In this document: positions 17,410 through 63,846 of the stretch, piece by piece
Layout of the letters: every line of letters starts with the position of its first letter
How positions within the stretch are numbered: position 1 is the first letter of the stretch
From: a virus
Lineage: Duplodnaviria; Caudoviricetes
DNA: 64,000 bases
IMG/VR virus record: IMGVR_UViG_3300021255_002539
Coordinates: 32,001-96,000 of that record
Strand: one strand, 5' to 3'
The notes under the pieces: generated by a model
What the model saw: the letters and a program-made list of their open reading frames with translations, nothing else
Told to the model about the DNA's origin: nothing
The model's database searches: none
Position numbers and translations under genes: made by a program

Positions 17410-18552
17410 TCAATCAATTGGTGTTGTTTTCTCGCAACTCCAATCTGTTGTGTCGCAAGCATCCCCAAATGCAGGATGTGGCTCAAATTCGCTCTCTGTA
17501 CCCTCGATGGGCGAAATCAACGCTATGCCTTGCGAGGCCAACCGGTCAATGAAATCGTCCACCAACTTGATGTCCTCGTCTGTGAGATTGTCAGGTACAT
17601 CTCCATACATTATGTAGGTAGTTGCCCAATTGGGGATCTTTTCGACAACATCATCTTCGCCCTGTCCTGGGTTTCCACCCCTCTGCTCCCAGAACTCGTC
17701 CTCGTTCACAATCACGAAGTCATCTGTTCCAAAGTCCAGGTCAGGATACTCCTTGCCAATCATCCTGCACACTTCGTCCACCAACCGATCATGGGTATCT
17801 GCCCTGTCATAATCGATGAGATATGTAGAACCATCGCCCTTGAAGATGCCAAAGTCCTCGTATTCGTCAGTATCCCACATTATCTCGACCTCGCCCTCAG
17901 AATCTGACAAATCGCGTGGATTGTCATCCATACTCTCGTCGTATACCATATCATCCAGGTCTGCCCTGTACTGCTCTATGGCAGCTTGGTCATAGTCCTT
18001 GTTCCCAATTCTGATGTGGTCAATCTCGGGCAAATCCCCCTCTGGCTCACTGTCCTGCATTCCATCCAGGACATATAGTGCCTCAATGAGACTGTGAACT
18101 TGGCTTATTACATGGGGCTGGATGCGACTATCCTTCCAATAGACAATTGCAGAATCAATCTGGTTGCCCTCAGTGAAGTTGCCCCTGATAGGTCTGCATG
18201 TCTGGGTCTTGTATACCTCGTCGTCCTCGCCCTTGGTTTGAAGTCCATTCCACTTCACTGCGAATTCCTTGAACTCGTCACCATGTGCGTCCAAAAACAC
18301 CTCGTTGATGAGGTCTGGGTTTTTCAAGACTTCCCATATATCCAAATCATTCTCATGCAACAGTTTGTCGGTTGCATATCTGGCAAGTTTGGGTTCATAA
18401 TAGTAGATTTCTCCATTGGCATCGTCAACAATGCACTCCATATGGAAAACTTCGTCACTGCCAGGGAACTTGATTTCAGTTCTATCACAGCTAACTACAA
18501 CATCCCCTATGTAGTCGGGACCTAATGTGGATTCTGAAACTACGACTTTCAT
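17410..18552 (-). CDS. Acidic multidomain late protein (possible internal head protein)
   Basis: Late motif at 18585; N-terminus MKVVVSES; very acidic. Confidence 0.7.
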   Translation of the reverse strand: MKVVVSESTLGPDYIGDVVVSCDRTEIKFPGSDEVFHMECIVDDANGEIYYYEPKLARYATDKLLHENDLDIWEVLKNPDLINEVFLDAHGDEFKEFAVKWNGLQTKGEDDEVYKTQTCRPIRGNFTEGNQIDSAIVYWKDSRIQPHVISQVHSLIEALYVLDGMQDSEPEGDLPEIDHIRIGNKDYDQAAIEQYRADLDDMVYDESMDDNPRDLSDSEGEVEIMWDTDEYEDFGIFKGDGSTYLIDYDRADTHDRLVDEVCRMIGKEYPDLDFGTDDFVIVNEDEFWEQRGGNPGQGEDDVVEKIPNWATTYIMYGDVPDNLTDEDIKLVDDFIDRLASQGIALISPIEGTESEFEPHPAFGDACDTTDWSCEKTTPID

Positions 18553-25053: not shown

Positions 25054-26097
25054 ATGAAGATATTGAACAGAACATATAGGGATGTAATTGGGACAGAACC
25101 CAGTTTCCAGAAGACCACGATAACCGACCTCCCCGAGACGCAGGAACTGCTGGAGGGGTCGTTGATGCATGTCGCAGTGAAGGTTGATGACGAGAACAAC
25201 AACTACGAGTCCATGAGGATATCCACCGACAACTTCAAGCAGAAGATATACGAGTCAATATTGAATACCCTCAGGACGAAGTACTGGGACTCACACGAGT
25301 ACAACAAGCAGAAACGGGAGCCCAGCAAGAAGCACGATGTCGTGGAGGGACCCGACAGCAGACCGGCTGGCACATCGTTCAAGGATTTGCTCGACTACCT
25401 CGAACAGATGGACAAGGACAAGCCATCATCCGACAAAAACGTGTATGCTCCAGAGGAAGTTCCTGAACAAGACCCCAATGGCTTCGTGGATCACCTCTAC
25501 TACGACTTCGACTTGCTCAAGCGGTACATGGTGGCGAAGGACAACGAGATTGAGGGCACCATAACTGGATCTCTGTCGATGTCAAAGGACTTGGATTGCT
25601 ATTTCACAGAGCGCATGATGTTGTACTCCACAGACGAGGACAACAACTTGGAGGTTGTGGATTCGGTCAACGCAACAGATGGCGACTTGACAGAGAACGA
25701 CACCTATTGCCAAATGAAGATAGAGCCAGGCAACAAGATATCGAACGAATGGCAATGCCCCAAGACTGGCAATTTGGTCGTATATGGGTGGTTGGATTCC
25801 AGCAAGTGCCTCAACAACAAGGCGACCCCATCTGCGTTTTGCGTATTGGAGGGCATGATAGAGGACAAATGGAGGGTGATATCTGTCCAGCCAGTTAACC
25901 CAGCCAAGAACATATGCTATGTTGGCTTCAATCTCCTGGTGAAGGAAGGCTTGACTATACGGGCCAGGACAGGATTCGACGTTGGTGCCAAGTCAGGGCA
26001 GTACTCCAATGAGCAGGATGGCTTAGACACACTCTCCAACACCACGCCAAACGGCTTCAAGTGCATTATATACGCAAGAAAGGAACTGGAACAATGA
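25054..26097 (+). CDS. Late protein, possibly tail/baseplate associated
   Basis: Late motif ending at 25044; C-terminal FNLLVKEGLTI resembles FNLPVKQGTKI of the fibre at 49351-50850. Confidence 0.65.
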   Translation: MKILNRTYRDVIGTEPSFQKTTITDLPETQELLEGSLMHVAVKVDDENNNYESMRISTDNFKQKIYESILNTLRTKYWDSHEYNKQKREPSKKHDVVEGPDSRPAGTSFKDLLDYLEQMDKDKPSSDKNVYAPEEVPEQDPNGFVDHLYYDFDLLKRYMVAKDNEIEGTITGSLSMSKDLDCYFTERMMLYSTDEDNNLEVVDSVNATDGDLTENDTYCQMKIEPGNKISNEWQCPKTGNLVVYGWLDSSKCLNNKATPSAFCVLEGMIEDKWRVISVQPVNPAKNICYVGFNLLVKEGLTIRARTGFDVGAKSGQYSNEQDGLDTLSNTTPNGFKCIIYARKELEQ

Positions 26098-44613: not shown

Positions 44614-45303
44614 ATGGCAAACTACAATCTAGTTCAAGCAATTGACTTGTTCAACCAGGATCAGGTCCGTACACAGCATATGTACGAGATCGACTTCTTC
44701 TCCGGGTTTCCGAAGATTGACGCGACGTTGACGAGAATGCAGGTGTATGGTCAGAACTTCACGCTCCCCGAGAGGACAGTGAACTTCGACAATGTTCAAT
44801 ACAGGGCTTACAATGTCCCTGTCCCAACCACATTGGAAATGACTCAAGATCACAGCATCACCGTCTATGCCGATGTGCGTGGCGACTTGAGAAGGGCGAT
44901 GCTTGACTGGCAGGCAGCATGCATTGACCCAGACATCAGTGGTGGTTCATACTTCGAGTCCAACAGGCGTCCAACGAAGCTTGGTCCAGGGGAGGGCGCG
45001 ACGCCCCAAATCACCGTGAAGCTTCTGGCTCCTGACTTCCAGACATGCATCGAGAAGACTGTGATATATGGAACGAGGGTGACGAAGGTTGGTGGTCTTG
45101 AACTCTCCAATACTGCTGGAAGCATCTCGACCTTCACTGTTGACTTCAAGTCTGTGTATTGGGAGCAGTTGCCAGGCGAAGGCACCACGGTTGGCATATA
45201 CAACAGGGACAACGCAAGGCACACCATCATGGGTCAGACCTACGCAGATGGCGACTTCAACAGGGCAACCGAGGATCCAATGGCGTCCGAGAACCACGTG
45301 TGA
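44614..45303 (+). CDS. Tail tube protein, gp19-like
   Basis: RTQHMYEI, FTLPERTV, SITVYAD, LRRAMLDWQ, VGGLELS, STFTVDF pattern; SD GAGGT. Confidence 0.8.
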   Translation: MANYNLVQAIDLFNQDQVRTQHMYEIDFFSGFPKIDATLTRMQVYGQNFTLPERTVNFDNVQYRAYNVPVPTTLEMTQDHSITVYADVRGDLRRAMLDWQAACIDPDISGGSYFESNRRPTKLGPGEGATPQITVKLLAPDFQTCIEKTVIYGTRVTKVGGLELSNTAGSISTFTVDFKSVYWEQLPGEGTTVGIYNRDNARHTIMGQTYADGDFNRATEDPMASENHV

Positions 45304-45424: not shown

Positions 45425-47185
45425 ATGCGAGGAGACCCAACATATACGCAATACGACATGTCCGAGAGGGGGGAGGAGAAGAAGTACCCAAATTGGAAGG
45501 ATGCTGCCCCAAATCTGCAGACATTCCTCACTGCCCTCAACCAATCTCAACCAATAATCCAATGCCAATACGAATTGGTGTGGAGCAGATGGCCGAGGAC
45601 AATCTTCTTCGCAAAGAACATCACGATTCCTGGCGTATCTGTGAACACGCTTGACATCTCCCATGCTGGATTCACCATCAAGATACCAACTCACGTCACA
45701 TACGAAACCACAGAGGTCTCGATAAACATAATCGCTGACAAGGAGGGCTTCCACTACTACGACCTCAGGAACATGGTTCTGCAGACTGGACATCCATTGG
45801 TTGCTGGCGATCCAAGGGCCACAATTGGAAACCCATACGGACTGTCACCTGACGAGGACACATTGGAGGTCAGATTGCGCAACAGACCCGAGGACGAGAC
45901 CCACCACCACTGGATTCTGCACAACTTCCACCCAACTGGGATAGGAGACCTTGAACTGACCCAAGATGGTGGTGGATTCGTGGAGTTCGAGTTGAAGGGG
46001 ACGATAACCCATGTCACATACGATTGTGGAAACAGCAACGGAGAAATGCCACAACAAGAGCAGCAACAGCAAGAAAGCCAACAGGAAGGTTCGAGCAACA
46101 ACCCAATCGTGCAACTGGCGTAGTCCCCAACACTTGGCGTGTATGTATACAACACTGAAACCCACGAGGGCAAGTGGGAGCGAACAGGGCAGCCCGTTGA
46201 TGTGTCTAGCGTGGTTCTGCCACCTGGAACATCCCAATATGGCGACAATCCAGATCTGAACTACGACGGTTCATCCACGCAAAAGTGGAATCCACAGGAT
46301 TGGGATGGCGACCCAAACACCCAATACATCGTCAAAAGCGAAACCCTTACTGCTGCGAAGAAGGATGTTCAGGTTGATGGCAAGACGATGACAATGGTGA
46401 AGATTCAGGGGAACTTGACTCCAGAACAAACAGAAATACTGAAACAGGGTGGAACACAGGCATTGATCAACCAACTTGAGATGGAGAACAAGGAACAAGC
46501 AAACATCGACCAATATGCCGAGGATTTGCAGGAAATCAGCGACCAATCCAGAAACAGCAACTAGTCTGAGCAACAACCCCCAGAAGAAGACGACCAAAAC
46601 ACATCTGGATTTAAGATATAGGCGACGAAAAGCGCAGATGGCACATACACGATTGAAAAGGCAACCATGTTCAACTCGTCGAAGGTGTTGACGCAAGACG
46701 ACATGGTTGTGCAAACGCAGATACTCACATCACTGAGAAACGACTACGAAAAGTCCAAGGGAGGGAAGAACACTGTGATGCAGGCGCATCTAAAACGGCA
46801 AGTCGAACTGCAGGAGAAGAAGATGAAAGTGATGCAACAGTGGATTGACGAGCGAAATGCAGAACAACCCCAGACCAGAGGTGGTTCCCTTCCTGTTGGA
46901 TAGATGTCCCAAAGCCAATTGGAGCAGCTGAAGTACCTTTTCGAGGCGGTTCAATACAACTACGACCTGCCAGACAACTTCATAGTCGTAGTCAATCCAC
47001 TAGAGGAAATTGAAATATACAACCAGAGATTGACCAAGATGAGCCTCCCAGGGAGATTTGGAATGTACAAGTCCACAAAGAAGGATGCTGAGGAAAAACT
47101 GGACATAGACCCAGAAGACCCACCCTTCAACCCAAATCCAAGAAAAGTGGATCCCAACCACAAGGTCAGGGATATATTCGGGTGA
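45425..47185 (+). CDS. Second tail-tube-fold protein with long C-terminal extension, 586 aa; TAG=Gln
   Basis: Four ORFs join across TAGs at 46121, 46562, 46619 and 46901; FAKNITIPGV...LHNFHPTGIGDLEL...EFEL tube-like domain. Confidence 0.72.
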
Positions 47186-47304
47186 TTCAGATTCGGAATT
47201 TCGTATAATTGAGGCATAGGTAAGTGTAAAGGGTGGTATTTACCATAACTTCAAGTAAAAGGATACATGGTGATGCTCCCAACCAACAAAGGAAACAAAA
47301 CACC

Positions 47305-47961
47305 ATGCCAAGAAGAAAAACCGAATCACTGGAGGAATTCCAGAAGAAGAACCTAGAGAAGTCCAAGATAAGATAGAGGTAGAGGGCGGAGCAGGAGAAG
47401 ACCAACCCGAAGCCAAAGCGCAAGCCATTCGTCAACAACGCAGAACTTCTGGACGAATTGAAGAAGTGGCGGGACTCCAACGAGGACGAGACAAAGAGGG
47501 TTCCATCAGAAAGGTTGGGGAAGATGATGCAGGACATAGCCACGCACTACATGGGACACCCAGACTATGTTCGATACCCCAAGGAAATCAAGGAGGACAT
47601 CATTTCAATGTCCTACGAGAGGATATTCAAGACTGCGATATTCAAGTACAACTTCAACTTCACGAACCCATTCGCGTACTTCACTCAGGTTTGTTGGAGC
47701 TGTGCGATGACCTACCTCAAGAAGCACTACGACTTTTTGAACTTCAAGAGGAAGCTGGTGAAGGAGAATCTGGAGAAGGCGATGGACGAACTCCCATCCA
47801 TCAACATAGACAAGTCCTACATGACCTTCCTGAAGAACATGATTGGCGCAGATCAGATAACTGAGGCAGACGCCAAGTTCCTGAAACGGCAGAAGGACTC
47901 CATCATCCAGGAGATTCTGACAGAGAAAGCCAACAACGAAGACGACGACAACATCAACTGA
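47305..47961 (+). CDS. Late-transcription sigma factor, T4 gp55-like, 218 aa; TAG=Gln
   Basis: FVNNAELLDELKKW, LGKMMQDIA, PDYVRY, KEDIIS, NPFAYFTQVCW; SD AAAGGAAA; TAGs at codons 24 (47374) and 26 (47380). Confidence 0.88.
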
Positions 47962-61917: not shown

Positions 61918-63846
61918 TCAAGCAGATTGTTGTTCTGCTTCTTCCTAGTCCCGTACTATCTTGGAGATGTTGTCCTGCTTCTGAACAACCATCATCTGGG
62001 TCTCTGGCATGTCCTTGAACATGGTCTCGACCTCGCCACGGTGCGAGATGATGGAGATGTTGGTGTTCTCCCTCTGAGACAACTGAAGCAATATGCCCAG
62101 CAACTTCTGAATCGACACACTGTCCAACGCCCTGTCCACAACCTCGTCTATGATCATTATGTTCATGCAGACATTGAACCTCGACATCAAGAACCTCCGA
62201 AACGCCAACTGGGAGGATATTATCAACTTCATCTGCTCGCCCAACGAGAGGTTGGGGAAATCCAGTTCGCCACCACTGGACTGAATCTCGTAGTCGTTCA
62301 TGTCACTGGTGAGGTTGCAGGTGAAGCTCACGCACAACTCAGAGAGGTTGGCGTTAATCATGGCGTTTATCGAGGACACCACTCGGGAGATTATGTTGCG
62401 CTTGATTGCGTCTGGCGAGACTATCTCTGAGCCAACCTTCATCAGGCACATCCTCAATGCCTCGGTCTTCAGGTCGTTCTCAACCTCGGTGATCTGCTCC
62501 AATGTGCTCTGGTACACATTCCAGGACGGTATCTTGCTCTCGTCCTCTATGGAGTCCACCAATTCTGATATCTTGCGTTCAAGCGACTGTATGGAGCTGG
62601 CAATCTGGTTCTTCTGGAACAAAAGGCTTCTCTCCTGAACCTGAATGTCTGACAACTCGCCCATCTTCCCAGTCTCCTCTGCCTTGAGCTTGTCGTCGTA
62701 GACCTTCACCTTCTCGATTTGTCTGTTGGCGTTGTCAATCCTGGCTTGCTCGTTGGATATGTTCGCATTCAGCTTGTCTATCTCGTTCCTGTACACATCA
62801 AGGGAGTAGAACTTGTTGACGACCTTCTGGCAGTCGTCGCAAATCATGCCCAGAACCTCCTTGTGCTTGTTCAACTCCCGCTCGTGGTGGGATATCGTGG
62901 TCTGGGAGTTCGTGATGGATATTCTGGAATCTGTAATGGCGTCTCCACACCTCTTCATCGCGTCCTCCAACTTCGCCTTGCTTTCGCGGATGGTCTTCAA
63001 TGCGGCATCCACGACCTCCTTCTGCCTCTCCAACTCAGTGAACTTGGGTTCCAAATCCCCCAACTGGGACTCCTGCGACTCCTTCTCCTTCTTCGTCTCC
63101 TCTATCTGACCGTTGACGCCAGCCTTGTACTTCGCAATCTCCCCCTCACACATCTCCTTCGTCTTCTCCAACTTGACCTGGTTCACCTTGAGGTTCTGAA
63201 TCAGCATGTTCTTCGCCTTCATGTCCTCGCCCATCATCTTGTACATCTTGGTGTAGACAGAGGTGTCGAACAGGGTCTCCACGAATTCCCTCTTCTGGGA
63301 TGCGTTCAGCTTGAAGAAGTTGTACTTGTCGTCGACAGAGAGCATCACCATGCGCTGATACATCTCGAAGTTCATGAACAGAACATTCTCCTCTATGAAC
63401 TTCTGCGTATTTGCGGATGTTGACTTGGATATGTCGGTCCACTCCCCAGACTCGTCGTCCAGGGCAAACAACTGCAGGACAATGGAGGCCGAACCCTTCT
63501 GAAGACCACGCACTATCTTCCAATGCCTGGTGGACGAACTCGACACAATGGCGTCAACCTCCACAGACACGCACATCTTCCACCCATTCCTCACAGAATC
63601 CAGATACTTGTTCTTGAGGTTCGCTGTGTGGATCTTTCCACTCAACTGCCCAAACAGCGCGAACATGAGGGCATGCGACCAGGCTGACTTGCCAGAGCCA
63701 TTGGATGTGTTGCCCAATGTGGACTCAGTGTCTTTATTGACGCCCTTTATCAGAACCAGCCTGTTCGTGTTGTCGAAATCCCATTCCTCGTCCTGAAACG
63801 ACAGGAAGTTGTGTATGTCTATCTTCTTTACCTTGACTTTGGTCAT
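61918..63846 (-). CDS. Recombination endonuclease ATPase subunit, T4 gp46/SbcC-like
   Basis: NFLSF, SNGSGKS Walker A, coiled coil with CDDC hook, LSLGE signature, IIDEVVD, IISH. Ends at 61945 if TAG is a stop, 61918 if read as Gln. Confidence 0.9.

Follow-up and report, generated by a model that had tools for sequence, protein, structure and literature searches.

The window analyzed here, a 64,000-nt stretch of DNA, comprises bases 32001-96000 of a 414,060-bp phage contig, which has a 107-bp terminal overlap and is rated complete. It contains a gene that we assign, on its sequence and predicted fold, to the gp55 family of late sigma factors. Two in-frame TAG codons lie near the 5' end of this gene, and its leader carries an early-type promoter element, a late-type motif in reverse orientation and a Shine-Dalgarno-like AGGA (Table 1).

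Table 1. Features of the gp55 locus and the candidate suppressor tRNA gene (window positions unless marked as genome)
Feature	Position	Strand	Remarks
Early-type promoter element TTCGTATAATTGAG, subtype E2	47200..47213	+	TATAAT at 47204-47209; promoter predicted from motif
Reverse late-type motif in gp55 leader	47235..47246	-	plus strand GGTATTTACCAT; reverse complement ATGGTAAATACC
Shine-Dalgarno-like AGGA in conserved stretch ACAGGAAAC/AAAGGAAAC	47290..47293	+	kept with the ATG in six aligned relatives
gp55-family late sigma factor gene	47305..47961	+	218 codons with TAG as Gln; profile and fold matches
Clade-specific N-terminal extension, codons 1-42	47305..47430	+	without counterpart in T4 and other gp55 proteins
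In-frame TAG, codon 24	47374..47376	+	seen in sequence
In-frame TAG, codon 26	47380..47382	+	seen in sequence
Conserved gp55 core, residues 36-205	47410..47919	+	extent of PHROG profile match
Non-canonical tRNA(CUA), 79-nt cloverleaf	genome 297902-297980, outside the window	-	folds as the cloverleaf at minimum free energy

The gp55 gene, its N-terminal extension and the genetic code

The frame opens with an ATG preceded by AAAGGAAAC and is closed by a TGA at 47959-47961. The ATG start with a good ribosome-binding site and the TAGs at codons 24 and 26 are present as described in the original prediction. Its further statement that no ATG separates the TAGs from the FVNNAELL motif (codons 42-49) can be extended to GTG and TTG, since no in-frame start codon of any of the three types occurs from codon 27 up to the TTG at 47458 (codon 52). 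The conserved gp55 core can be translated in this phage only by TAG readthrough. Initiation at TTG 47458 was rejected because it would remove the VNNxELL motif together with the 23 most conserved residues of the protein.

Assignment to the gp55 family draws on profile and structural comparisons. The translated product matches the PHROG family phrog_234 'late sigma transcription factor' (E = 3e-17), whereas a Pfam search of the protein gave only a sub-threshold, spurious match. In tblastn searches, gp55 genes annotated in T4-like cyanophages, a Pelagibacter phage and coliphages were matched at about 30% identity, and the sequence-profile comparison with the T4 gp55 chain 7d7c_F from the open complex 7D7C yielded E = 2e-8. 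The AlphaFold2 model (mean pLDDT 84) has the same chain as its best Foldseek match (probability 1.00, TMt 0.67), followed by sigma-E region 2 chains; the predicted structure has the sigma region-2-like helical fold of T4 gp55. The C-termini of the gp55 homologs are acidic and variable.

Residue 11 of T4 gp55 aligns to about residue 43 of the window protein, and the first ~32 residues therefore constitute an extension that other gp55 proteins lack. The same MPRRK.ESLEEF... extension opens gp55 in all 13 clade members compared. Conservation within the protein peaks at its codons 1-23 (mean pairwise identity of 0.91 vs ~0.8 elsewhere), residues 24-41 stay in frame with an identity of 0.79, and AlphaFold2 predicts a single helix at residues 9-33, which spans both TAG positions. 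This conservation shows the extension to be genuinely coding and its start to be conserved.

The high identity of residues 1-23 would also be expected if the TAG were a real stop releasing a functional peptide of 23-25 residues, with the core being made by re-initiation or the fusion being made late. Indeed, in the sub-lineage with a TAG at codon 25, codon 27 is a start codon (TAG-CAG-ATG in L082 and TAG-CAG-TTG in L001), and termination followed by re-initiation could yield a core-only sigma in these two phages. However, codon 27 encodes Arg in the window and most relatives, no other start precedes codon 52, and initiation at codon 52 would delete VNNxELL, which aligns to T4 gp55 residues 11-18. 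Both the in-frame conservation of residues 24-41 and the predicted helix crossing the TAG positions also stand against two separate products, and we consider this explanation very improbable.

The source of the window is a giant gut/rumen phage with a TAG-to-Gln code, in which TAG readthrough opens frames of up to 3,889 codons. Among the 450 genes called by a simple gene caller of our own, 101 contain an in-frame TAG (308 TAG vs 4,153 CAA/CAG codons). As a true terminator, TAG is depleted: TGA closes 310 of the called genes and TAA 140, and a TAG within the final 12 codons that might serve as the actual stop is present in 14 genes at most. Alignments of 250 ortholog pairs shared with G001, a 418-kb relative whose genome is complete, were made with TAG masked. 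Gln makes up 31% of the residues facing a TAG in these alignments and is 7.8-fold enriched there, which indicates that TAG means Gln in this phage.

The genome encodes a T4-like core that includes the portal gp20, gp15, the large terminase, tail tube and baseplate proteins, as well as gp46/gp47-like nucleases, a Dda-like helicase and a family-B DNA polymerase on the replication side. No match to the gp45 clamp C-domain (PF09116) or to the release factor domain (PF00472) was found in the genome, and megablast against cultured phages gave no match. The body of the gp46/SbcC-like gene (window 61918-63846, minus strand) is free of TAG, in agreement with the original prediction; its only TAG (61945-61947) is codon 634 of 642 and is also present in G001. 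This early gene probably ends at that codon and keeps the TGA eight codons further on in reserve; the protein would then acquire a short tail if suppression were on.

A TAG hotspot at codons 24-26 of gp55 orthologs

The expectation that gp55 orthologs keep N-terminal TAGs was assessed at the DNA level in 13 distinct clade members, including the window, with pairwise protein identities of 72-96% (the window, L001, L082, L083, L085, L086, L087, L089, L091, L092, L094, L098 and L099). It was borne out, as every one of the 13 genes possesses at least one TAG at codons 24-26. TAG accounts for 19 of the 28 Gln-class codons (68%) at these three positions vs 11 of 102 (11%) elsewhere in gp55, with a Fisher p = 5e-9 that is to be read with the relatedness, and hence non-independence, of the 13 sequences in mind. 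The codon 24 column is Gln-class in 13/13 genes (eight TAG, two CAG, three CAA) and the codon 26 column in 12/13 (eight TAG, four CAG); relatives lacking a TAG at these columns have Gln there in all but one case at codon 26.

The number of N-terminal TAGs varies from one to three among the relatives, and the suggestion that two TAGs compound the dependence is therefore not conserved as such; only the presence of at least one TAG at codons 24-26 is kept. On a gp55 nucleotide tree built without codons 24-26, six patterns were distinguished (qRq, qKq, qKQ, QKq, QqQ and QqR). TAG was gained at codon 25 on two independent occasions, each time with the codon 24 TAG lost and the codon 26 TAG absent, and the other branches show single TAG losses at codon 24 or codon 26; no branch in this tree of 13 sequences lacks a TAG at codons 24-26. 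Identity at four-fold sites within the set is 0.45 vs 0.29 for random, and synonymous positions have therefore largely turned over.

This persistence was weighed against a simpler scenario, in which gp55 is a middle-class, TAG-tolerant gene and the cluster consists of ordinary recoded Gln codons of no regulatory meaning, retained through common descent in a stretch rich in Gln. Gln is indeed conserved at codons 24 and 26, a single transition converts CAG to TAG, the 13 sequences are related rather than independent, and N-terminal TAG clusters also occur in the portal gene and a tail-tube paralog. Nevertheless, TAG positions elsewhere in the genome are randomized at this divergence: in the ortholog alignments, only 9 of 140 TAGs (6%) are retained in place between this genome and G001, a TAG falls within ±2 codons in the G001 ortholog for 8% of this genome's TAGs, and the conserved Gln sites carry 9 TAG vs 41 CAA/CAG codons. 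The N-terminal TAGs of the portal gene are not retained in G001 (four vs one), the conserved Gln columns 13, 184 and 196 of gp55 are never TAG, and codon 25 acquired its TAG twice exactly where the neighboring TAGs had been lost. Because the hotspot is retained against fast TAG turnover elsewhere, the persistence of TAG in gp55 is, from these comparisons, best explained by selection for TAG itself, and we regard ordinary Gln recoding as improbable.

Database homologs of gp55 offer this simpler scenario one further point. In 29 of 34 such homologs the gene is 5'-truncated, as expected when standard-code gene callers meet a TAG, and the remaining five (P0004, P0013, P0015, P0016 and P0017) are full length in apparent standard-code gene calls; because of these five, TAG-free gp55 alleles may exist. 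Scans of viral contigs with degenerate patterns did not recover any of the five.

Position within the gene should also be considered. Among TAG-bearing genes, TAG is about twice as common in the first 30 codons (24% vs 12%), an excess that could be inflated by start-codon errors in our own gene calls, and the N-terminal bias may for this reason partly represent a general cost-minimizing pattern.

Promoter classes, the gp55 leader and the suppressor tRNA

De novo 8-mer enrichment upstream of genes yielded two motif groups, a TATAAT type (E) and [GT]GTAAATA, the latter splitting into GGTAAATA (L, usually AATGGTAAATA) and TGTAAATA (M). Upstream regions are strongly enriched in [CTG]TATAAT[AT], and the genes that follow this motif are poor in TAG. 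The TAG share of Gln-class codons is 1.8% in class E (70 genes in this genome), 6.3% in class M and 9.6% in class L (37 genes), with closely similar values in G001 (1.2%, 6.9% and 9.8%, respectively); the difference between E and L is significant in both genomes (p = 1e-10 here and p = 4e-10 in G001). Internal TAGs occur in 4/70 E genes vs 24/37 L genes, and a gene that contains TAG in one of the two genomes tends to contain it in the other as well (odds ratio 25, p = 2e-18). Class E can be further divided into E1 (gAATaTGgTATAATATAGg; 51 genes, TAG 0.6%) and E2 (ttTtTcGTATAATTgaA; 43 genes, TAG 3.0%), giving at least four upstream motif classes genome-wide (E1, E2, M and L), examples of which are found upstream of window genes 17410-18552 and 25054-26094. 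The L motifs are often arranged as back-to-back divergent pairs.

In both genomes, the virion genes rich in TAG show an enrichment of GGTAAATA at a distance of 30-50 nt upstream. The late -10 consensus of T4 is TATAAATA, which GGTAAATA resembles. Because of this likeness, and that of the TATAAT type to sigma-70 -10 elements, we interpret class E as putative early promoters and class L as putative gp55-dependent late promoters. Among T4-like late genes, those for the portal, large terminase, tail tube, gp15 and tail fibre bear TAGs, whereas the genes for DNA polymerase, helicases, NrdD and nucleases do not; the partition between early and late genes is not absolute, as some structural genes are also TAG-free. 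Within the window, the Dda-like helicase, two exonucleases and a methyltransferase-like gene have no in-frame TAG, as the original prediction had stated for its early and replication genes.

The gp55 gene is an exception among the E genes. It is one of the four of 70 E-only genes with an internal TAG, alongside a gene resembling a transposase and two others that contain one TAG apiece, and it is the only gene located directly behind an E motif that has an internal TAG in both genomes. The transposase-like gene (genome 13552-14916, plus strand) has seven in-frame TAGs behind an early-type promoter and is thus another exception to the class rule; it is probably a mobile element and was rejected as a member of the circuit.

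The early-type TATAAT reported in the original prediction is present 101 nt upstream of gp55, and in all 13 relatives a TATAAT lies 78-102 nt before the ATG. Neither a forward L or M motif nor a canonical -35/-10 pair was found upstream of gp55, the leader RNA shows no significant structure (z = -0.93), and no plus-strand terminator was detected before the gene. Two tail-tube-like genes (phrog_45) directly upstream, at window 44614-45300 and 45425-47182, lie on the same strand with no terminator in between, and gp55 may therefore also be read from later transcripts. One of them is TAG-free and the other has 586 codons with four TAGs; a third paralog (genome 328468-329217, minus strand) contains five TAGs in its first 64 codons.

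A reverse-oriented late-type motif is also part of the gp55 leader, where 11 of the 13 relatives have an exact TATTTAC[CA] 62-68 nt before the ATG. Among tandem intergenic regions, a reverse late-type motif occurs only at gp55 (1/121 here and 1/133 in G001), and all remaining reverse motifs in the two complete genomes serve divergent genes. This arrangement is suggestive, speculatively, of an antisense and possibly gp55-dependent promoter that would exert negative feedback on gp55. The minus-strand open reading frame of 85 codons downstream of the motif (46960-47217) was rejected as a gene, its start not being conserved in the relatives.

Standard tRNA finders reported 28 tRNAs and a tmRNA in the genome, and no tRNA(CUA) was recognized in the tRNA array or the whole genome by ARAGORN (at default or lowered thresholds, with introns allowed) or by Rfam. 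The intron-containing 'cta' calls made by ARAGORN at low threshold were rejected, as they lie inside coding regions. Outside the tRNA finders' predictions, a non-canonical tRNA(CUA) was identified elsewhere in the genome (Table 1). Its acceptor stem measures 7 bp and its anticodon loop reads CU-CUA-AC; the T loop has 8 nt, the D loop is unusual, the discriminator base is G, and CCA is encoded. The gene is flanked by a CGTATAATTG promoter motif on one side and by a hairpin followed by a T run, resembling a terminator, on the other. G001 has a different, canonical tRNA(CUA) body behind the same promoter and leader, and the E2 subtype (ttTtTcGTATAATTgaA) is common to gp55 and the tRNA(CUA) genes of both phages. 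The phage tRNA(CUA) would presumably be charged with Gln.

Two other loci were discarded as suppressor candidates. A tRNA-like gene at genome 367853-367926 (minus strand), scoring 43 bits with the Rfam tRNA model, combines an acceptor stem of 8 bp with the 6-nt anticodon loop GUCAUA and lacks CUA. In the tRNA array region, the tRNA adjoining a stretch that matches the flank of the G001 suppressor locus is an ordinary tRNA-Ile(UAU).

A possible gate on late transcription and its relation to known systems

We consider it fairly probable that the late sigma factor is amber-gated, that is, that the onset of late transcription depends on TAG decoding and that selection keeps at least one TAG at codons 24-26. 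According to this model, gp55 would be transcribed from its early-type, host-polymerase-like promoter, and ribosomes would stop after a 23-residue peptide unless the TAG is decoded as glutamine. The host polymerase would presumably transcribe both tRNA(CUA) and gp55 early, and the build-up of full-length sigma would be limited by how quickly the suppressor prevails over release factor 1. Such a tie between sigma accumulation and the suppressor would make the start of late transcription dependent on the code change, and two TAGs would render the suppressor dependence steeper, the relatives having one to three. The TAG-rich virion genes behind GGTAAATA motifs would then be transcribed only in cells able to translate them, so that the TAGs may serve to time or license the late programme.

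The original prediction that full-length sigma is made only once suppression is active is thus upheld in that the core needs TAG readthrough, and is to be modified in that no separate later switch is implied. Because the suppressor tRNA also has an early-type promoter, we prefer to regard the arrangement as a dependency, a delay or a checkpoint tied to the accumulation of the suppressor, and the delay imposed by an early-class suppressor could be small.

The same hotspot would fit equally well with attenuation of the sigma dose, where incomplete suppression holds full-length sigma at a low, fixed fraction of its mRNA for the whole infection, the early location of the TAGs minimizes wasted translation, and late timing has another source, such as the coupling to replication known from T4. 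Sharing an early-type promoter subtype, gp55 and the suppressor tRNA would appear together; TAG is generally enriched in the first 30 codons; and TAG numbers from one to three are as expected for level tuning. On the other hand, gp55 is nearly the sole early-promoter gene treated in this way, and weaker ribosome-binding sites or promoters would do the same. The output of an attenuator would still depend on the suppressor, so it is not cleanly separable from a gate. We regard a pure dose effect as unlikely.

The gating model can also be carried further, to a small complete timing circuit built on the genetic code at the gp55 locus. In that case, early promoters would supply both the suppressor tRNA and the gp55 mRNA, and sigma output may rise steeply with suppressor level owing to the TAG hotspot, as in a feed-forward AND gate that would license the TAG-rich late regulon. 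A gp55-dependent antisense promoter may then fire back at the early promoter and end the production of sigma when the late genes are being transcribed. The complete circuit, with both AND gate and antisense feedback, appears doubtful to us.

A regulatory role of recoding has been proposed before. In gut phages with a TAG-to-Gln code (code 15), recoding was suggested to regulate late or lytic genes (Borges et al., 10.1101/2021.08.26.457843), and TAG-to-Gln recoding was validated by metaproteomics (PMC9523058). The present phage shares with that model the meaning of TAG as Gln, early/replication and code-change genes compatible with the standard code, recoded virion genes and a suppressor tRNA of its own. 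The gating of late genes by recoding is, as a general idea, already published. The published model blocks each late or lysis protein separately, whereas here the TAG hotspot is in a gene that follows an early-type promoter and encodes the master regulator of the late programme, so that the code change would operate one level further up. Neither 'sigma' nor 'gp55' is mentioned in Borges et al. (10.1101/2021.08.26.457843), and among the papers searched none was found that ties recoding to a late sigma factor. A 2026 survey of jumbo phages reports recoding without preference for protein types (PMC13037316).

The comparison with T4 is informative. Both gp55 proteins are homologous in sequence and fold and share the VNNxELL and NPxAY(F/I)TQ motifs, and both phages have the T4-like core genes and a similar late-type motif. 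The window protein differs from T4 gp55 in its low identity (~30%) and in the ~32-residue clade-specific N-terminal helix that carries the TAGs; in addition, the gp45-type clamp C-domain of the T4 gp55-gp33-gp45 system was not detected here. In T4, gp55 has a hydrophobic C-terminal motif for binding the sliding clamp gp45, and gp33 acts as co-activator. T4 couples late onset to replication and not to decoding. Its gp55 is a pre-late ('middle') product (PMC6024815), and transcription of the T4 late genes requires a functional gene 55 (PMC2988020). Because loss of gene 55 abolishes late transcription in T4, the present phage resembles a natural gene-55 amber mutant with its own suppressor. As in the gene 55 amber mutants of T4 that are propagated on suppressor hosts in the laboratory, the late programme would depend on an amber suppressor tRNA; unlike in those mutants, the ambers are natural and apparently kept by selection, and the suppressor is carried by the phage itself. 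A further parallel is provided by the Jade phages, in which the code change is likewise wired to one decisive step of the lytic cycle. In that case, however, the link consists of gene neighborhood, lysis proteins and TGA, whereas here it is a hotspot of TAG inside a transcription factor.

Phage recoding is widely suspected to be regulatory, and the evidence so far has been the correlation of recoded stops with late genes. In gp55, the recoded codon itself appears to be selected, with compensatory turnover at one spot while TAG drifts freely elsewhere. The gp55 TAGs also suggest that gene callers systematically truncate the late sigma regulator. The locus offers a small testable object, 80 nt of coding sequence and one tRNA, for asking what recoding is for. 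If the gating model is true, the code change would be an input to the transcriptional master switch and not only a lock on each virion protein, which would explain the clean absence of TAG from early-class genes.
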